In this document: piece by piece, positions 43,951 to 60,268 of the stretch | Position numbering within the stretch: the first letter of the stretch is position 1 | Layout: every line of letters starts with the position of its first letter | Source of the DNA: Escherichia coli | GTDB lineage: Bacteria > Pseudomonadota > Gammaproteobacteria > Enterobacterales > Enterobacteriaceae | Length of the DNA: 64,000 nt | Assembly: GCF_009931435.1 (NCBI RefSeq) | Contig: NZ_CP043414.1 | Strand: one strand, 5' to 3' | The notes under the pieces: model-generated | Databases searched by the model: none | Seen by the model: only the letters and a program-made list of their open reading frames with translations | Told to the model about the DNA's origin: nothing | Translations under genes and position numbers: made by a program

Positions 43951-46900
43951 CTATTCTGGCGTACCCGTTATTGTCATCGTCTGCAACGGTCCATCCACCC
44001 GATAAAAAGGCAGTCCACTATGAGCTCCTCTGACACACTCATCTAAAGTTTTCGCCGCACGCGATTCAATTATTGTAATAACCCTTGCCTCTTCTTTATT
44101 ATCATATTTCTTATCCGTCCGACTTAAAAGAGCCATGAAATTTTCTTTATCAAGAAGGTAATACTGTGCATGTGCAAACTCATGCCCCAAACCTAATGCA
44201 GGCGATTGTGATTTCGAGTTTAATTCAGTTGAACAAAATAAAGACGCTCTACTATTCCAATATATCGTCATATTATTCGAATTAAATCTACCATTGGTTC
44301 CTTCAATATACTCTATATTTATAGTTTCTTCAGAGCTTGATAAAAAATCTATAGCATCTTTCATTCGTGAATCTTTTTCTAAATACTTAACAGCCTGATT
44401 AAAATCACTTGGATCACCATTAACCTCGAATTTTAAACCCAAAGAATCTATAAACCGAACAGGGTTTAATGGATATTTATACAGATTCCATTCACCTCTT
44501 AGCCCGATTGGATCCTGCGTGATATACCTCCCCTGCAACGGGTCATAGTACCGGTGACGGTTGTAGTACAGCCCCGACTCCTCATCATACTGCTGCCCTG
44601 GCAGACGGTACGGCTGTTGCAGGTGCTCCGGGTTTTCCTCTCCCAGCAGGTTTCCCCACTCGTCATACTCCCCGCGCCACGCCGTTTCCCCTTCCGGGCT
44701 GATAAGCGCCTGCGGCAGCCCACGGTGGTCACAGTGGTAAAGATGAAGTTTCCTCTCCGGGATGTATTCTTCCTCCATCTGGTTGTTCATCTGTTCCGCC
44801 GTCAGCCCGCACTGCGCAAGCCATGCTTCACTCTCCGCACTCACCGCACCCGCGCGCAGTTCCCGCTCCAGCCTCCCCAGCATCACCGACAGCTCCGCCG
44901 GGAGCGTCACACCCGTGTCCTCCTGCAACACCTCCGCCAGGCTACGGTGCCGCGCCTTCGCCTGTTCGCCATTCTCTGTTTCGATTCTCAGGAGCGGCGT
45001 GAAGCTTCCCGGCTGATAAATCGTCTGGATACGTGTGGTGCCGGTCTGTACCGTCGTCAGCCTGTCACCGTCCCACCCGTACCATGTCTCCTCCGGTTTA
45101 CGCGACAGCGACATCCATCCCGTCAGGTCACGCTCCCGCCGCCACACCCGTTTTCCCGTCCTGCGGCCCAGCGGGTCGTAAAGGTAGCGGCTCTCCACCT
45201 GCGGCTCGCCGTGCTGTATCCGCGTGTAGAACACCAGACGGTGCTGGCTGTCGTAATGGTAGTGGTGGGTGCGCTCGTCGTGCATCCGTATCACCCCTTC
45301 CGGGATACGGTCCGTCTTCTCCGCCAGCCTGCCGTATTCATCGTGGCGGTAGACATAGTGCGCATCTTCCGCGATGCGGTTATCCGGCCACGCCGTGAAG
45401 GTGCTGTCCGGGTGCAGTTCCGGGTCCGGCAGCCGGTTTCCTGCCGGGTCCGTCGCATACGGGATATCAATGTCCAGGTTCGCTGCCGTGGTGTGGACGC
45501 CCGTCAGCCTTCCCGTGTCGCTGTAACGGTACTCCCGGCTCTCCTGCGGGCCGCTGATACGCACCAGTTGCCCGTTATCATTCCACGTATACTCACGGTC
45601 AAGCTGCGGAAGGTTCAGGTGCCTGCTCCGGAGCTGGCCTGTGAGGGTGTATGTGCTGGTCAGTTCATATGCGGCATTACTGCCTGCCATGCTGCCGAAG
45701 CTGCGCACCGTCTCACGGTGCAGCCTGTCCCGCGTGTACTCGACCAGCGGCGTTCCGCCCAGCTTCATCCCCGCAAGATAACCGCTGCCATACGTCAGCC
45801 ACTCCACCGGCGGCAGACCGTCCGGCTCCTGACGGGTCGCCAGCCCCTGTTCGCTGTACGCGTGCCCCGTCTCATGCTCCCACAGCATCTCCCCCGTCTC
45901 CGGGTTCTCCACCGTCTGCCGTTCGCCCGTCAGGCGGCCCTTATCGTCATAGCCGTAGTGGACCGCCACACGGTGGCCTTCACTGGTATGGCTGAGGGTG
46001 GTTAACCACCCGTGCTCATCATACTGCCACTGCTCTGCCGCTTCGCCGTTCACCGTCCGGTGCGTGATGCGGTCCGACGCATCGTAGTGCCAGAGGGTGA
46101 TAAGTCCCTCGTCTTCACTGCGGACAAGCTGCCCTGTGGCGCTGTACCGGTAACGCTGTGTCCGTCCGTCAAAGCCGCGCTGCTCCGTCAGGCGGTCCAC
46201 CGGGTCATACAGGAACGTGGACTGGCTGCCGTTCTCATTAGTCAGCGTGGTGATGCGCCCGGCGGCGTCATACCCCATGCTGCGCGTCAGACCGCCCTGC
46301 GTGGTGCTGATAGCTTTACCCCACGCATCATACTGTGTCTCACTGCGGCTGCCGTTCGGGGCAATGATAGCGGTGAGGTCGCCTGCGGCGCTGTACTCAT
46401 AACGGGTTTCACGCCCCTGCACATCCTTCTGACTGACCAGTTGACCACGCGGGTTATAACTGCTGTAAGTGCTGATGCCTTCTTCCCGGTGAACCGCCGT
46501 CCTCTGCCCGTACCGGTCGTACTCATACCGTGTCGTGTACCCCGAGCAGTCCGTGAAGGCCAGCAGTTGACCGTAGCGGCTCCATGCCATCTGTTTTGTA
46601 CTGCCCGTCGCATCCTGTATCCCTGTCGGCAGCTCACTCGCCGGGTCATCATAGCTGTACCGCGTCGTCTCACCGCTGCGCGAGGTCTCCGCCGCCAGCC
46701 TTCCCTTCTCATCATACTCCCGGCTGCTGCGAAGCCCGTCCGGGTACGTCACTGACGTCACCTGCCGCTGGCTGTTGTAGCCATACCGCACCGTCCTGCC
46801 GTCCGGCCCCGTCACCGCCGTCACCGCGCCCGACGCCATATGCAGGCTGTACTCCGTCCGCCGCCCCGCCGCATCCGTCTGCGCCTTCAGCCTCCCCGCC

Positions 46901-48207
46901 GCATCATACTCGCTGCGGGTGATGCTCCCGTCCGCATGCTCCTTCTTCACCACCCGCTTCAGGCCACCCTCGCCTTCCGTGTACAGCACCTCCCGCCTGT
47001 TCAGGCTGTCCGTGATGGTCACACGGTCCTGCCCGTACTCAAAGCGGTAGGCCAGCCCCTCCGGGTTGACCTGCTCCGTCACCCGACCGGTATCATCATA
47101 CCGGTAGCGGCTCTCCGGCCTCCCCGCATAATGGTGCGCCACCATCCGCCCGGCGTGCTCCGCATCATAAGTAAACCCGCGCACCTGCGTCCCGCTGCGG
47201 TCATACACCGCCAGCAACTCACCGCTGGCCGTGTACGTGTAGCGCGCCAGCGGCGCAGTCGGCTGTTCATCCGGGTATGCCGGGTCGTGTGTCAGCCACA
47301 CCGCCTCCAGCCGGATACCGTTATCGGCACCGTATTCTGTACCGGCGGGCAGCGTGTCGGGGAAAACCTGAGAAGAGGAAACAGAACGGGGACCGGCAGG
47401 GGAAGATAAAGACGTGGCGCGCTGTTTACGGCAGGCTTCCGCCCGCTGCGCCTGCGTGCTCAGCAACAGGTGAAAACGACGGCCCGCACCGTCCGTCCCC
47501 CCCGTCACCGCGCCCGCCACGTCACCCTCCGCTGCCCGGTGAAAGGCCAGCGTCCGACCAAAGCCATCCACCACGCCCGTCAGCACCCGGTATGCGGGCG
47601 GTTCCGGCGGCAGCACCTCGTCCGCCCCCGGCACCCGCTCCGGCCAGCTGAGTATCCACCACGGCCCCTGAAGGCTGTTTGTCGCCAGGTACACATGCGG
47701 ACTCAGGCGAACATCTTCCGGCAGCACCTGCCAGAGCGCGCTTAGCGGCTGCGAACTGTGCTGCTCCGCCCCCCCGCCCCGCGCCAGCCAGAACGACTCG
47801 CTGCGGCTGTAGCTTATCTCGCCGGGAAACAGCGGCTCAAAGTGAATGCTCCTGCCGCCGTTGTCGTTGAGTATCAGTTCCCGCTCATGAACCTGTAAGC
47901 GGATATCGAAGGGCGCTTTCCAGCCGGGGCCGAACACGCCCACCGGCGCGGGCGTCCTGGTCCGGTAACTGCTGTAAGCGCGGGAAAGAATAAACGGCAG
48001 CGGGCCGGGCAGTGCCAGGTCCGTCTCGCCCGGCAGCACCTTCGCACCCAGCACCGGGTTCACCGGGTTAGCATAGGTAATCCCTCCCGGACACACCGAG
48101 CAGGCCACTCCCGTCGGCGCACCTATCAGCACCCCTGCTGAACCCTGCACAATATCCAGTCCCTTGCGGGTCATGTCGCCCTGCCGCGCCGCCGGTTTTC
48201 CGCTCAT
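43951..48207 (-). CDS. PAAR-Rhs polymorphic toxin (Rhs2), HExxH-containing C-terminal domain
   Basis: 1418 aa; N-terminus carries a literal PAAR motif ([13 protein letters not shown]...GSAGVLIG); long YD-repeat core; core ends [27 protein letters not shown]; last about 160 aa unique, with HEFAH. Confidence 0.9.
44497..47450. repeat. Rhs core direct repeat, copy A (paired with 50623-53580)
   Basis: Track shows identical 483-aa antisense ORFs at 44554-46005 and 50680-52131, so at least 1.45 kb is nucleotide-identical between the two Rhs genes; flanking core highly similar with scattered substitutions. Outer boundaries approximate. Confidence 0.8.
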
Positions 48208-49627: not shown

Positions 49628-50074
49628 TCAATACTTAGTGCAGCGTGTCTTAAGGAAATTAGAAGCCACAACATCAATCTTTTCTTTTAAGACTAAATCA
49701 TCCACATAATCACAAGACAAATAGAAGTCATTACCATCGGCCATTATAAATATCCTCATAGGTAAAGATTTATCATTATCAACATGAGCATTCGTAATAA
49801 TCCAATAATAAGGAAATCTAACATTTTTTGTAGGAATACCCAATAAATCATAAGCTTTATTATTATATTCTATCGCTCCCTTAACAAACGTTGGTTTGAC
49901 CTCCTTACCAATAATGCGATGCGACGTATATTCTTCCTTCTCAGCAAACGATTGCATTAATGCCCATATAGGTTTATTTGCCAGCTCACCGTGATGAAAA
50001 ATCCGATAAAAATACACTCCTAAAAAAAATATTAAGCCTAAGCAAACCAATACCATGAGGCAGTTCTTACTCAT
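49628..50074 (-). CDS. Putative membrane-anchored immunity protein for the Rhs1 C-terminal toxin
   Basis: 148 aa; ATGA start/stop overlap with Rhs1; single N-terminal TM helix ([19 protein letters not shown]); AT-rich. No recognised family. Confidence 0.55.
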
Positions 50075-53000
50075 TGATTAAAATCCGTAAAATTAGAAGG
50101 AACAGGGCCATTCTCAGGTGAAAACAATGGAGATGTATTTGATACTCGTGATGCTATCATTTCTACAGTAGCAGGAAGATACATTGGCATTCCATTATCA
50201 CCACCTAGCGGATCAGTTGAAGTTAAAATTTCATTTATTGAATCTACTGAGACTCCCGCATGCAACATTGCCTCAATAACCATTGTTGCACAATTGTGCG
50301 TAAAATAGTTATAGTCACTTCTATCTACTTTATATTTTTCATCAATGTACTTAATCATTGCTTTCTCTTGTTCTGGCGTGGTTTTAATTGTATATATCCT
50401 CGTGCTTCTACGTTGTGCTTGTTCAGTTAAATAAGCTATGACACTCCCTCCACGTGGGGTAGCGGTTCCATAGCTATATACCCCTTTTCCAGTAAATGCC
50501 ATCGCAGAATGCCCTAATGGATTACCACTCGTGGGTCCCCCAGCAAAAATAAGGGTATCCAAACCAAGTGGATCTATATTTATAGTTGGATTCCACGGAT
50601 ATTTATAAAGATTCCATCCCCCCGCAAGCCCGATTGGATCCTGCGTGATATACCTCCCCTGCAACGGGTCATAGTACCGGTGACGGTTGTAGTACAGCCC
50701 CGACTCCTCATCATACTGCTGCCCTGGCAGACGGTACGGCTGTTGCAGGTGCTCCGGGTTTTCCTCTCCCAGCAGGTTTCCCCACTCGTCATACTCCCCG
50801 CGCCACGCCGTTTCCCCTTCCGGGCTGATAAGCGCCTGCGGCAGCCCACGGTGGTCACAGTGGTAAAGATGAAGTTTCCTCTCCGGGATGTATTCTTCCT
50901 CCATCTGGTTGTTCATCTGTTCCGCCGTCAGCCCGCACTGCGCAAGCCATGCTTCACTCTCCGCACTCACCGCACCCGCGCGCAGTTCCCGCTCCAGCCT
51001 CCCCAGCATCACCGACAGCTCCGCCGGGAGCGTCACACCCGTGTCCTCCTGCAACACCTCCGCCAGGCTACGGTGCCGCGCCTTCGCCTGTTCGCCATTC
51101 TCTGTTTCGATTCTCAGGAGCGGCGTGAAGCTTCCCGGCTGATAAATCGTCTGGATACGTGTGGTGCCGGTCTGTACCGTCGTCAGCCTGTCACCGTCCC
51201 ACCCGTACCATGTCTCCTCCGGTTTACGCGACAGCGACATCCATCCCGTCAGGTCACGCTCCCGCCGCCACACCCGTTTTCCCGTCCTGCGGCCCAGCGG
51301 GTCGTAAAGGTAGCGGCTCTCCACCTGCGGCTCGCCGTGCTGTATCCGCGTGTAGAACACCAGACGGTGCTGGCTGTCGTAATGGTAGTGGTGGGTGCGC
51401 TCGTCGTGCATCCGTATCACCCCTTCCGGGATACGGTCCGTCTTCTCCGCCAGCCTGCCGTATTCATCGTGGCGGTAGACATAGTGCGCATCTTCCGCGA
51501 TGCGGTTATCCGGCCACGCCGTGAAGGTGCTGTCCGGGTGCAGTTCCGGGTCCGGCAGCCGGTTTCCTGCCGGGTCCGTCGCATACGGGATATCAATGTC
51601 CAGGTTCGCTGCCGTGGTGTGGACGCCCGTCAGCCTTCCCGTGTCGCTGTAACGGTACTCCCGGCTCTCCTGCGGGCCGCTGATACGCACCAGTTGCCCG
51701 TTATCATTCCACGTATACTCACGGTCAAGCTGCGGAAGGTTCAGGTGCCTGCTCCGGAGCTGGCCTGTGAGGGTGTATGTGCTGGTCAGTTCATATGCGG
51801 CATTACTGCCTGCCATGCTGCCGAAGCTGCGCACCGTCTCACGGTGCAGCCTGTCCCGCGTGTACTCGACCAGCGGCGTTCCGCCCAGCTTCATCCCCGC
51901 AAGATAACCGCTGCCATACGTCAGCCACTCCACCGGCGGCAGACCGTCCGGCTCCTGACGGGTCGCCAGCCCCTGTTCGCTGTACGCGTGCCCCGTCTCA
52001 TGCTCCCACAGCATCTCCCCCGTCTCCGGGTTCTCCACCGTCTGCCGTTCGCCCGTCAGGCGGCCCTTATCGTCATAGCCGTAGTGGACCGCCACACGGT
52101 GGCCTTCACTGGTATGGCTGAGGGTGGTTAACCACCCGTGCTCATCATACTGCCACTGCTCTGCCGCTTCGCCGTTCACCGTCCGGTGCGTGATGCGGTC
52201 CGACGTATCGTAGTGCCAGAGGGTGATAAGCCCCTCGTCTTCACTGCGGACAAGCTGCCCTGCGGCGCTGTACCGGTAACGCTGTGTCCTGCCATCAAAG
52301 CCGCGCTGCTCCGTCAGGCGGTCCAGCACATCATAGGTAAACTCACTCCGGCTGCCGTTCTCGTTGGTCAGCACGGTGATGCGCCCGGCGGCGTCATACC
52401 CCATGCTGCGCGTCAGCCCGCCCTGCGTGGTGCTGACGGCCTTTCCCCACGCATCATACTGTGTCTCACTGCGGCTGCCGTCCGGGGCAATGATAGCGGT
52501 GAGGTCGCCTGCGGCGCTGTACTCATAACGGGTTTCACGCCCCTGCACATCCTTCTGACTGACCAGTTGACCACGCGGGTTATAACTGCTGTAAGTGCTG
52601 ATGCCTTCTTCCCGGTGAACCGCCGTCCTCTGCCCGTACCGGTCGTACTCATACCGTGTCGTGTACCCCGAGCAGTCCGTGAAGGCCAGCAGTTGACCGT
52701 AGCGGCTCCATGCCATCTGTTTTGTACTGCCCGTCGCATCCTGTATCCCTGTCGGCAGCTCACTCGCCGGGTCATCATAGCTGTACCGCGTCGTCTCACC
52801 GCTGCGTGAGGTCTCCGCCGCCAGCCTTCCCTTCTCGTCATACTCCCGGCTGCTGCGCAGCCCGTCCGGGTACGTCACTGACGTCACCTGCCGCTGGCTG
52901 TTGTAGCCATACCGCACCGTCCTGCCGTCCGGCCCCGTCACCGCCGTCACCGCGCCCGACGCCATATGTATCCGGTACTCCGTCCGCCGTCCCGCCGCAT

Positions 53001-54342
53001 CCGTCTGCGCCTTCAGCCTCCCCGCCTCATCATACCCGCTGCGGGTGATGCTCCCGTCCGCATGCTCCTTCTTCACCACACGCTTCAGGCCACCCTCGCC
53101 CTCCGTGTACAGCACCTCCCGCCTGTTCAGGCTGTCCGTGATGGTCACACGGTCCTGCCCGTACTCAAAGCGGTAGTCCAGTCCCTCCGGGTTGACCTGC
53201 TCCGTCACCCGCCCGGTATCATCATACCGGTAGCGGCTCTCCGGCCTCCCCGCATAATGGTGCGCCACCATCCGCCCGGCGTGCTCCGCATCATAAGTAA
53301 ACCCGCGCACCTGCGTCCCGCTGCGGTCATACACCGCCAGCAACTCACCGCTGGCCGTGTACGTGTAGCGCGCCAGCGGCGCAGTCGGCTGTTCATCCGG
53401 GTATGCCGGGTCGTGTGTCAGCCACACCGCCTCCAGACGGATACCGTTATCGGCACCGTATTCTGTACCGGCGGGCAGCGTGTCGGGGAAAACCTGAGAA
53501 GAGGAAACAGAACGGGGACCGGCAGGGGAAGATAAAGACGTGGCGCGCTGTTTACGGAAGGCTTCCGCCCGCTGCGCCTGCGTGCTCAGCAACAGGTGAA
53601 AACGACGGCCCGCACCGTCCGTCACCCCCGTCACCGCGCCCGCCACGTCACCCTCTGCCACCCGGTGGAAAGTCATCGTCCGACCAAAGCCATCCACCAC
53701 GCCCGTCAGTACCCGGTATGCGGGTGGCTCCGGCGGCAGCACCTCGTCCACTTCCGGCACCCGCTCCGGCCAGCCGAGCACCAGCCACTGCCCGGTTGTG
53801 CTGACAGCCATCATATAGGTGTGTGGACTCAGGCGGACCGCTTCCGGCAGCGCCCGCCAGAACCGCGCAAGCGGGTGTCCTTTATGCTGTTTCAGCACCC
53901 CGCCCCGCGCCAGCCAGAACGACTCGCTGCGGCTGTAGCTTATCTCGCCGGGAAACAGGGGTTCAAAGTGGATGCTCCGGCCACCGCTGTCGTTAAGTAT
54001 CAGTTCACGCTCACAAATCTGTAAGCGGATGTCGGAGGGGGCTTTCCAGCCGGGGCCGAATATCCCCACCGGGGCTGGCGTCTTCGTCCGGTAACTGCTG
54101 TAGGCGCGGAAAAGGATGAACGGCAACGGGCCGGATAGTGCCAGGTCGGTTTCAGCAGGCAGTACCTTCGCTCCCAGCAGCGGGTTTACCGGATTGCCAT
54201 ATTTCGGCGTGGCTTCCCCTGTGGGACACACCGAGCAGGCAACCCCCGTCGGCGCACCTATCAGCACCCCTGCTGAACCCTGCACAATATCCAGTCCCTT
54301 GCGGGTCATGTCACCCTGCCGCGCCGCCGGTTTTCCGCCCAT
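50071..54342 (-). CDS. PAAR-Rhs polymorphic toxin (Rhs1), His/Cys-containing C-terminal domain
   Basis: 1423 aa; PAAR motif at N-terminus ([13 protein letters not shown]...); YD-repeat core; core ends [27 protein letters not shown]; last about 162 aa unique (…[11 protein letters not shown]…[11 protein letters not shown]…); GAAGGA SD; 75 nt downstream of vgrG. Confidence 0.9.
50623..53580. repeat. Rhs core direct repeat, copy B (paired with 44497-47450)
   Basis: See copy A; same orientation, about 6.1 kb apart. Confidence 0.8.
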
Positions 54343-57982: not shown

Positions 57983-58483
57983 ATGAGCAAAAAATTTGAA
58001 GGCAGCGTCGCGCCTCGCGAGCGTATTAATATATCGTATGTCCCAAAAACAGATGGCCAGACGGCTGAAGTGGAACTTCCGCTTAACATGCTCGTTGTCG
58101 GCGATACCGGAAATACGCAGGAAACATCCTCACTGGATGAACGTCAGGCAGTTTCCGTTAACAAGCACAATTTCGGTGCAGTGATGGCTGAAGCAGCCAT
58201 TGGCCTCAATTTTACCGTCCCCGCCACGCTGAAGGGAAGCACAACGGACGATGAACTGAATGTGGCGCTGAATATCAAGTCACTGGATGATTTTTCACCA
58301 GATAGCGTGGCCCGGCAGGTTCCGGAAGTGAATAAATTGCTGGAATTACGTGAAGCACTGACTGCACTGAAGGGGCCGATGGGTAACCTTCCGGCATTCC
58401 GTACCCAGCTCCAGGCATTGCTGGAAAATGAAGAGTCCCGCGAGCAGTTGCTCAAAGAAATCGGCCAGGTGAGCAATAAATAA
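57983..58483 (+). CDS. tssB: TssB (VipA) sheath small subunit
   Basis: 166 aa recognised as TssB (MSKKFEGSVAPRERINISYVPKTDGQTAEVELPLNMLVVGD...). Confidence 0.85.
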   Translation: MSKKFEGSVAPRERINISYVPKTDGQTAEVELPLNMLVVGDTGNTQETSSLDERQAVSVNKHNFGAVMAEAAIGLNFTVPATLKGSTTDDELNVALNIKSLDDFSPDSVARQVPEVNKLLELREALTALKGPMGNLPAFRTQLQALLENEESREQLLKEIGQVSNK

Positions 58484-58517
58484 CCACCACTATTTCATTA
58501 AACAGGGTTATCCAGGC

Positions 58518-58742
58518 ATGACGGCACACAAAAATATCTCCGGGACATACCACCTCTCTGTTGCAGACATTCTGCAGGTGGTTTACCAGGTATGTTTCAG
58601 CCCGTCCGTTGAAATCAACCAGGATGGTGTGGCTGCGCTGATTACAACACTGGATCGCCGTATCAGTGATCTATTGGATGAGATTATCCATTTTTGTGAG
58701 TTTCAGCAGAGCGCGTCGCACTGGCAGCGCGTACTTCACTGA
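58518..58742 (+). CDS. Hypothetical 74-aa protein resembling a TssC N-terminal segment
   Basis: ORF between tssB and tssC; C-terminal half (LITTLDRRISDLLDEIIHFCEFQQSASHWQRV) aligns with TssC residues IADIDERISRQMDVIIHAPAFQQVESFWRSL; similarity is protein-level only. Confidence 0.3.
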   Translation: MTAHKNISGTYHLSVADILQVVYQVCFSPSVEINQDGVAALITTLDRRISDLLDEIIHFCEFQQSASHWQRVLH

Positions 58743-58792
58743 CGGCGAAAAGCCGGTTTCAGAAACACAGCTAAAACAGAAGGATTTTCAGT

Positions 58793-60268
58793 ATGTCTTT
58801 ACAGGAAGAGGAACTCGTTTCCAGTCATGCCGGGCAGCCTGAGCAGGCATCGTCGCTGCTTGATCAAATCATGGCACAGACCCGTATTCAGCCCGGTTCG
58901 GAAGGTTATGACGTTGCCCGCCAGGGTGTGACAGCCTTTATTGCCAGCATCCTGCAATCCACTGCATCTGCCGAACCGGTCAATAAACTGGCCGTGGACA
59001 GCATGATTGCAGATATTGATGAACGCATCAGCCGCCAGATGGATGTCATCATCCATGCGCCTGCCTTTCAGCAGGTCGAGTCGTTCTGGCGCTCACTGAA
59101 AACCATGGTGGATCGCGTTGATTTCCGTGAAAACATCAAGGTCAACGTGCTTCATGTCACCAAGCAGGAACTTCTGGAAGACTTTGAGTTTGCGCCAGAA
59201 ATTATTCAGTCCGGATTTTATAAGCACGTTTATTCGTCCGGTTTCGGACAGTTTGGCGGTGAACCCATCGCTGCCGTGCTGGGCGCTTATGAGTTCAAAA
59301 ATACCGCGCCTGACATGAAACTGCTGCAATACGTCAGTGCCGTGGGCGCAATGGCGCACGCACCGTTCCTGTCCTCCGTTTCCCCGGAGTTTATGGGGCT
59401 GAACTCGTGGACCGAACTGCCTAATATCAAAGATCTTTATGCCATCTTTGAAGGTCCGGCCTACACCAAATGGCGCGCCCTGCGTGACTCGGAAGATTCG
59501 CGCTATTTAGGGCTTACGGCACCCCGCTTCCTGCTTCGCCAGCCCTATTCACCAACAGATAACCCTGTTAAGAACTTTAACTATTACGAAGATGTCAGCC
59601 AGAACCACGAAGATTATCTGTGGGGTAATACGGCCTGGATGCTGGCATGCAATATCGCAGACAGTTTTGCCAAATACCGCTGGTGTCCAAACATTATCGG
59701 TCCGCAAAGCGGCGGCGCAGTGAAAGATCTGCCGGTGCATCTGTTCGAAACGATGGGGCAGATTCAGGCCAAAATCCCAACCGAGGTGCTGGTCACCGAT
59801 CGCCGCGAATTTGAACTGGCTGAAGAGGGTTTTATCACCCTTACCATGCGTAAAGACTCTGATAATGCAGCCTTTTTCTCTGCAAACTCGGTACAAAAAC
59901 CGAAGCACTTTCCGGGAAAAGATGCAGAAACCAACTATAAGCTGGGTACGCAGCTTCCTTATCTCTTCATCATCAATCGGTTAGCGCACTACATCAAGGT
60001 GTTGCAGCGTGAACAACTGGGGTCATGGAAAGAAAGGAGCGACTTAGAAAGAGAGCTTAATACCTGGATCCGTCAGTATGTTGCCGACCAGGAAAACCCG
60101 CCTGCAGACGTGCGCAGCCGCAAACCTCTGCGCGCTGCCAAAGTTGAGGTTATGGATGTAGAAGGCGAACCCGGCTGGTACCAGGTTGCGCTAAGCGTGA
60201 GACCTCATTTTAAATTTATGGGGGCAAATTTTGAGCTTTCCCTGGTTGGCCGGTTAGACAGGGAGTAA
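58793..60268 (+). CDS. tssC: TssC (VipB) sheath large subunit
   Basis: 491 aa recognised as TssC. Confidence 0.9.
   Translation: MSLQEEELVSSHAGQPEQASSLLDQIMAQTRIQPGSEGYDVARQGVTAFIASILQSTASAEPVNKLAVDSMIADIDERISRQMDVIIHAPAFQQVESFWRSLKTMVDRVDFRENIKVNVLHVTKQELLEDFEFAPEIIQSGFYKHVYSSGFGQFGGEPIAAVLGAYEFKNTAPDMKLLQYVSAVGAMAHAPFLSSVSPEFMGLNSWTELPNIKDLYAIFEGPAYTKWRALRDSEDSRYLGLTAPRFLLRQPYSPTDNPVKNFNYYEDVSQNHEDYLWGNTAWMLACNIADSFAKYRWCPNIIGPQSGGAVKDLPVHLFETMGQIQAKIPTEVLVTDRREFELAEEGFITLTMRKDSDNAAFFSANSVQKPKHFPGKDAETNYKLGTQLPYLFIINRLAHYIKVLQREQLGSWKERSDLERELNTWIRQYVADQENPPADVRSRKPLRAAKVEVMDVEGEPGWYQVALSVRPHFKFMGANFELSLVGRLDRE

Follow-up and report, generated by a model that had tools for sequence, protein, structure and literature searches.

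A small open reading frame between tssB and tssC of Escherichia coli as a probable remnant of an ancient partial tssC duplication

Among the proteins that act on the sheath of type VI secretion systems (T6SS), TagJ/HsiE1 are small cytoplasmic accessory proteins that contact a sheath subunit, and TagJ-type genes are conserved as genes. Some reading frames called in T6SS clusters are pieces of T6SS genes. The T6SS island of E. coli O157:H7 contains several such remnants, including the split tssA (Z0251/Z0252) and truncated versions of vipB, tssM and etse4 (PMC7216683; PMC12981562), and the CAG-to-TAG mutation of vipB/Z0262 has been published previously (PMC12981562). Between tssB (Z0264) and tssC (Z0262) of O157:H7 EDL933 lies Z0263, whose product (WP_000123970) is annotated by PGAP as "hypothetical protein". 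The searchable literature mentions Z0263 in a gene-presence list only, and gives neither a function nor a link to TssC, while one source labels a Z0263-type ORF "predicted component of type VI protein secretion system".

Here we analyse the same ORF in a stretch of 64,000 nucleotides from E. coli contig NZ_CP043414.1, hereafter called the window; its identity with Z0263 was assigned by the locus-tag numbering of EDL933. The relation of the ORF to tssC and its decay were worked out in the present analysis. We consider it probable that the ORF is what remains after an ancient duplication copied part of tssC, namely its 5' end, and that it has ceased to evolve like a gene for a protein. Compared to TssC/VipB (TIGR03355, PF05943), its product comprises only 74 aa, of which residues ∼31–72 are homologous to TssC 61–102, and lacks the ∼390 residues that form the sheath subunit. 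Like the remnants of the O157:H7 island, it would thus be a non-functional or fragmentary piece of a T6SS gene that is still called as an ORF. However, the lesions of the island are recent, strain-level events in the single copy of a gene, whereas the ORF would be an old extra 5' copy that is present in several genera and has an intact parent next to it. To TagJ/HsiE1 there is no sequence relationship; a resemblance could be functional at most, if the product acted on the sheath, and the frame of the ORF, unlike the TagJ-type genes, is not conserved.

Layout of the locus and homology of the ORF to TssC

The T6SS cluster of the window carries vgrG and hcp on the minus strand and tssB, tssC, tssE, tssF and tssG on the plus strand. 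The gene for the small sheath subunit, tssB (57983..58483, +), is intact (166 aa; TIGR03358, E 1.7e-50) and is annotated as such by PGAP in matching E. coli genomes. The large subunit is encoded by tssC (58793..60268, +), the probable parent gene of the fragment. It is full length, as the first-pass annotation of the window had stated (491 aa; TIGR03355, 703 bits, model positions 2–473 of 473), and matches the solved VipB/TssC structures. In this it differs from tssC of O157:H7 F6667 (L001:12894-14366, equivalent to 58793-60268 of the window), which is annotated with 463 aa due to a premature stop, while tblastn aligns all 491 residues at 99.6%. The spacer between tssB and tssC (58484-58792) measures 309 nt. 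Within it the small ORF described from the letters of the window is indeed present, extending over 74 codons from ATG to TGA (58518-58742, +), and most likely represents the still-open portion of a tssC 5' remnant. In this Escherichia type of spacer the tssC ATG is located 275 nt 3' of the ORF ATG, and the two genes are in different frames. The GC content by codon position (GC1 0.57, GC2 0.35, GC3 0.56) shows a coding-like pattern, and the Shine-Dalgarno pairing of the ORF is not weaker than that of tssB.

Downstream of vgrG, the minus strand of the window contains two large tandem ORFs of 1418 and 1423 aa (43951-48207 and 50071-54342), whose equivalents in L001 are annotated as RHS core proteins. 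Inside both of these RHS-type ORFs lie long antisense ORFs that are similar to each other (483 aa each; 44554-46005 and 50680-52131) and are probably an artefact of repeat composition.

Several independent comparisons relate the ORF to TssC. By BLASTP, ORF residues 15–72 align to TssC 50–102 with 20 identities in 58 positions (E 2e-8), which reproduces the match claimed earlier for the C-terminal half of the ORF. The Smith-Waterman score of 76 was reached by none of 5000 shuffles (27.9 ± 4.2; z 11.5). The TIGR03355 profile recognises the ORF with an E-value of 5e-4 (19.1 bits, model positions 43–82 of 473), and Pfam VipB does so with an i-E of 0.003 over 32 of 301 positions. Comparison of an ORF-family profile with TssC 61–102 by hhalign gave a probability of 95.6% (E 1.2e-8) for ORF residues ∼31–72, and a profile built from the fragments of three lineages matched TssC at E-values of 1e-14 to 4e-13 (∼4e-13 for its own TssC). 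Pairwise and profile alignment, which had been proposed as a check, is therefore significant, and at the sequence level common descent of the ORF with the TssC/VipB family is confirmed. As a whole protein (TIGR03355, or both domains PF05943 and PF18945) the ORF product falls below the curated cut-off, which is 271.5 bits for TIGR03355. On the DNA level, the detectable similarity to tssC is restricted to a best blastn match of just 51 nt at 70.6%, so that the duplication must be old, in agreement with the initial statement that it is not a recent one.

The stretch homologous to TssC ∼50–115 covers 58560..58775 (+), as delimited by BLASTP from ORF residue 15, by a tblastn high-scoring pair that reads through the stop, and by alignment to a TssC N-terminal HMM. 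Homology is colinear and crosses the TGA at 58740-58742 without a gap or change of frame, up to GFRNTAK, which matches the DFRENIK motif of TssC. With read-through translations of the spacer, the HMM alignment reaches profile position 113–115 in three Escherichia alleles, the part behind the stop being short and of low posterior probability. Since the match continues beyond the TGA, the homologous segment is longer than the ORF and the stop codon lies inside it. At the other end the alignments begin at TssC ∼41–61, and neither the ORF nor the spacer contains a match to TssC residues 1–40. The SLLDQIMAQ region of TssC is presumably the ClpV-binding helix known from VipB. Nothing equivalent to this N-terminal helix (LLDxIM region, TssC ∼21–29) is present in ORF or spacer; the DLLDEII of the ORF pairs with RQMDVII at TssC 81–87 and not with the helix. 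In the contracted sheath model of V. cholerae (3J9G), the first residue is the equivalent of TssC residue 64.

Distribution among relatives and origin of the fragment

Of 5,426 complete E. coli genomes, some 2,260 carry the same DNA, O157:H7 among them. The ∼2,240 genomes with an open ORF fall into no more than two haplotypes, one with ≥99% identity (1,967 genomes) and one with ∼93.5% (284 genomes), and the intactness of the ORF in E. coli is therefore not independent evidence. A search of 5.8 billion protein sequences returned ORF homologues from Escherichia only, 40 to 107 aa in length, many of them clearly frameshifted versions of the same DNA. A few members of the ORF protein cluster (P0061-P0063) are labelled Legionella pneumophila or Klebsiella pneumoniae; they stem from contigs of 300–450 bp and most likely reflect contamination of the respective assemblies with E. 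coli DNA. The size of protein clusters was also considered as a measure of polymorphism (419 members for the ORF versus 1386 for TssB, 898 for TssE and 1050 for Hcp) but gives no information here, since conserved proteins cluster at 90% across a larger number of lineages.

Outside E. coli, 73 related tssC loci from other species were each scanned for TssB, TssC and the ORF. Spacers of ∼290–310 nt bearing the element occur in this set only in Escherichia (L005, L027), Citrobacter youngae (L006), Atlantibacter (L007) and Yokenella (L008). In tssB-linked loci from the remaining genera (Rahnella, Yersinia, Serratia, Buttiauxella, Trabulsiella, Halomonas, Photobacterium, Helicobacter and others) tssC begins about 20–110 nt past the TssB match, and the ORF matches solely the tssC of the respective locus. 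Where it could be read directly, the tssB-tssC spacer of element-free clusters amounts to about 25–35 nt from stop to ATG. A second protein search added 70-aa versions from C. portucalensis, Salmonella enterica and metagenomes, and a profile search of 1.84 billion representatives revealed one further divergent lineage (L085 and L086). Apart from this lineage and the Escherichia and Citrobacter types, the profile search gave only truncated TssC fragments and spurious repeats, and the idea of a wider family of small TssC-like proteins was rejected. Spacer length stays between 283 and 316 nt across lineages so divergent that tssB and tssC are saturated at their 4-fold sites, which is a point against a pure relic. 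The element is thus known from three lineages, namely Escherichia, a group of Citrobacter, Atlantibacter, Yokenella and Salmonella, and the lineage of L085 and L086. It had a single origin in the common ancestor of this one sub-branch of the cluster family, and can serve as a lineage marker for this sub-branch of the T6SS type that includes VipA/VipB of V. cholerae.

In the 290-nt spacers of the Citrobacter type (L006:2888-3177, L007:2711-3000 and others) the fragment is in the frame of tssC, with 261 nt from ATG to ATG. Two TGA codons separate fragment and tssC in Citrobacter-type loci, the first of which is TGG in L006.

When the fragment profile of all three lineages was run against TssC proteins, the top scores (41–46 bits) fell on the TssC of exactly the 18 loci that bear a fragment, and scores decreased with distance. 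Such a ranking suits a copy made from the resident tssC better than a leftover of foreign origin. The position of the ORF points in the same direction: its ATG lies 29–34 nt 3' of the tssB stop, which is the usual start site of tssC in element-free clusters. Moreover, copies of the Citrobacter type start with MSLRKD, MGLRKD or MGLQKD, while TssC starts with MSLQEE. The ATG position and this MSL/MGL start are the sole hints to the junction. When the 36 nt preceding the ORF were compared with those preceding tssC for a duplicated ribosome-binding region, they proved no more alike than shuffled sequences, 6–26% of which do as well, and the mechanism of duplication is therefore inferred.

We propose that tssC originally started beside tssB, at the position now occupied by the ORF. 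A partial tandem duplication would have copied the tssC start together with about 115 codons, leaving the working tssC with its own ribosome-binding site further downstream. Subsequently, ∼30 codons near the N-terminus of the first copy would have been lost. The remnant would then correspond to TssC ∼40–115, devoid of the region of the ClpV-binding helix and of the remaining ∼375 residues.

Evolution of the fragment and of the DNA before tssC

Recent evolution within Escherichia was assessed with the window, the second E. coli haplotype (L002, 93.5%) and E. albertii (L003). The dN/dS of the ORF ranges from 0.91 to 1.48, compared to 0.06–0.13 for tssB and 0.03–0.22 for tssC (Fisher p 1e-8 to 1e-4 for the ORF versus its neighbour genes), and the synonymous fraction of 0.17–0.24 embraces the neutral expectation of 0.23. 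Variable sites at the three codon positions number [11,12,5] for Escherichia, while ten loci of the Citrobacter type have [30,30,27]. In nine Citrobacter-type loci, diversity by codon position is 0.126/0.133/0.146 for codons 1–44 and 0.068/0.074/0.071 for codons 45–70. For tssB and tssC of Citrobacter-type loci the corresponding values are 0.18–0.20 at position 3 versus 0.02–0.03 at positions 1 and 2. Among at least 98 substitution events in the ten Citrobacter-type loci, 3 nonsense mutations were seen and 3.4 were expected neutrally; this neutral count holds despite the fact that seven of the ten loci had been found through called ORFs of 58–70 aa, which biases the sample towards open frames.

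An open frame is kept by the two E. coli haplotypes, by E. albertii and by 7 of the 10 loci of the Citrobacter type. Of the five loci that were found through tssC independently of ORF calling, L005 and L007 have an open frame, but L006, L008 and L027 do not. Lesions comprise a TGA at codon 21 (L006), a frameshift together with a TAG (L008), a TAG in the homologous frame (L084), an early TGA (L086) and loss of the stop with a read-on to 105 aa (L085). L027, a divergent E. albertii allele, lacks the ATG and has acquired five indels. Its divergence of 0.27–0.33, with a flat codon-position profile of [26,20,20], equals that of the 4-fold sites of its own tssC. In all six of these loci the adjacent tssB and tssC are intact. 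In addition, several variants carry Pro substitutions in the predicted helix. Thus nonsense mutations, frameshifts, start loss and shifted stops show that the frame is not conserved in related clusters, although the idea of a functional mimic had been made to depend on such conservation. As judged from these alignments, there is no purifying selection on the encoded peptide within lineages, and its recent evolution is neutral.

Between the two E. coli haplotypes, divergence over the tssB-tssC region (57983-60268 of the window versus L002:3081-5366) is mosaic, with a dS of 0.17 in tssB but 0.012 in tssC, and the differences within the ORF are mostly in its 5' half, which points to a breakpoint of recombination within or beside the fragment.

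Deeper comparisons gave a different picture. Between group ancestors, the changes at the three codon positions amount to [24,19,37] of 70 (p 0.04). NG estimates between lineages gave a pS of 0.67–0.75 and a pN of 0.28–0.37; the resulting pS/pN of 2.0–2.3 exceeds the 1.05–1.4 obtained in neutral simulations (kappa 1–6), and out-of-frame controls are flat. For the third lineage, position 3 differs by 0.49–0.65 versus 0.35–0.43 at positions 1 and 2, while its own shallow pair is flat ([15,13,16]). The pooled shallow pattern of [82,75,68] differs from the deep ratio. All of the deep pairs share the same internal branches, single tests yield p values from 0.01 to 0.5, and the ratios are imprecise due to saturated synonymous sites; a gene under normal constraint would give a much stronger signal. 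Disequilibrium of base composition was considered as a cause, but by a rough estimate accounts for a ∼1.1-fold excess versus the ∼1.5–1.7-fold excess observed. Gene conversion from tssC after the split is unlikely, because the fragments of different lineages are ∼61% identical to each other in DNA and have almost no DNA similarity to tssC. We take the deep excess as a hint at translation and weak constraint of the fragment over some period after the lineages had separated.

Conservation of another kind is found at the 3' end of the spacer (58713..58792, +), which comprises the final codons of the ORF and the 50 non-coding nt behind it, and where it was recognised by diversity, by the differences between ancestors and by Shine-Dalgarno pairing. 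Over the last ∼80–100 nt before tssC, diversity per site decreases to 0.03–0.04, compared to 0.11–0.17 in the 5' part. This conservation is equal at all codon positions and carries on past the ORF stop to the tssC start, the group ancestors differing at just 5 of 48 positions behind the stop. Both features argue for constraint at the nucleic-acid level. The conserved end includes GAAGGA at 58779-58784, upstream of tssC, with a Shine-Dalgarno pairing of −5.5 kcal/mol, and is probably the leader and ribosome-binding region of tssC. In the 5' two-thirds of the spacer, drift proceeds at roughly the neutral rate of the locus. Persistence of the DNA is probably due to the present role of its 3' end as leader and translation-initiation region of tssC and to the small number of deletions that have occurred. 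The spacer has no match to an Rfam family at E ≤ 1, and conserved RNA structure is not supported there (alifold covariation −0.44 kcal/mol; z −1.4 for the single-sequence fold). A search of 58484-58792 for sigma-70 promoters or terminators found no consensus site, and counts equal the shuffle expectation.

Alternative explanations and consequences for annotation

Three other readings have to be weighed against decay of a duplicated tssC 5' end. The ORF may encode a working small protein derived from the N-terminal region of TssC that binds TssB or the growing sheath and modulates its assembly. Such a protein would be in line with the real homology to that TssC segment where the ordered part of the contracted sheath model begins, with the open frame in both E. 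coli haplotypes, E. albertii and many of the 70-aa Citrobacter-type versions, with the weak coding-like signal on deep branches, and with a Shine-Dalgarno pairing at least as strong as that of tssB. However, a dN/dS of ∼1 and flat codon-position profiles are seen in every lineage, nonsense mutations occur at the neutral rate, and L006, L008, L027, L084, L085 and L086 show start loss, frameshifts or moved stops next to intact tssB and tssC. Helix-breaking Pro substitutions in several variants, the extension of TssC homology past the stop codon, and the fact that most related clusters function without the element also speak against a working protein, which we regard as improbable. No more probable is the specific version in which the 74-aa product of E. 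coli would be a TssC decoy at the contact that TssC ∼60–100 makes with TssB or the neighbouring subunit, tuning or braking sheath polymerisation. If this were true, the high dN/dS would have to mean weak or diversifying instead of absent selection, and a peptide that is made and active would bear on the control of sheath assembly. Of the two options left by the first-pass annotation, the TssC mimic that modulates sheath assembly is not supported, since orthologous clusters do not preserve the frame. The degenerate relic, on the other hand, gains support from dN/dS values of ∼1, the lack of codon periodicity, the lesions in orthologues and the homology past the stop.

It is also conceivable that for some time after the duplication the fragment was translated and had a use, or was under constraint at the least, and that this role was then lost independently in all sampled lineages, so that it is now decaying. 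The third-position excess of the deep comparisons, set beside shallow comparisons that are all flat, is what this would predict, and by the rough estimate base composition could produce an excess of only about 10%. Nevertheless, a history of this kind needs parallel loss of constraint in three lineages and relies on a marginal signal from shared internal branches with saturated synonymous sites, and we consider it unlikely. Finally, the ORF could be irrelevant and the spacer kept as a cis element of tssC, be it an internal promoter, a CsrA-bound leader or a site of mRNA processing. The 3' ∼80–100 nt are conserved at every codon position and beyond the stop, and CsrA repression of tssC has been cited together with an A(N)GGA motif reported 8 nt before the tssC ATG (PMC13141884). 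Separate transcription units for tssB and tssC are attributed to Kim et al. 2022 (J Microbiol) in the citation given by PMC13141884, but the conclusion of PMC13141884 itself is that a single polycistronic operon spans the tssB region. The spacer is furthermore without a sigma-70-like site, Rfam match or supported RNA structure, and its 5' two-thirds evolve near the local neutral rate. Such an element would account for retention of the DNA and not for its origin, and is compatible with a duplication remnant; as a replacement for the latter it is very improbable.

The value of the finding is mainly practical, as it allows for a correction of annotation and provides the lineage marker described above. 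Because the E. coli frame happens to be open for 74 codons, pipelines call a hypothetical protein, and ORFs of the Z0263 type are listed as such in thousands of E. coli genomes. They would be better flagged as a tssC 5' remnant, so that they are no longer taken for T6SS components, virulence markers or candidate effectors. In vitro, the T6SS of EHEC is silent (PMC13141884), and the probable leader in the conserved ∼80–100 nt upstream of tssC may be relevant to the poor expression of this system.

Called products of the element vary from 34 to 107 aa, with varied starts and stops. On a metagenome contig with a degraded cluster (L087:2150-3300), a deletion joins the C-terminal part of tssB to the fragment and creates a chimeric ORF of 99 aa; tssC of this contig ends after ∼99 codons, beside a transposase-like gene.
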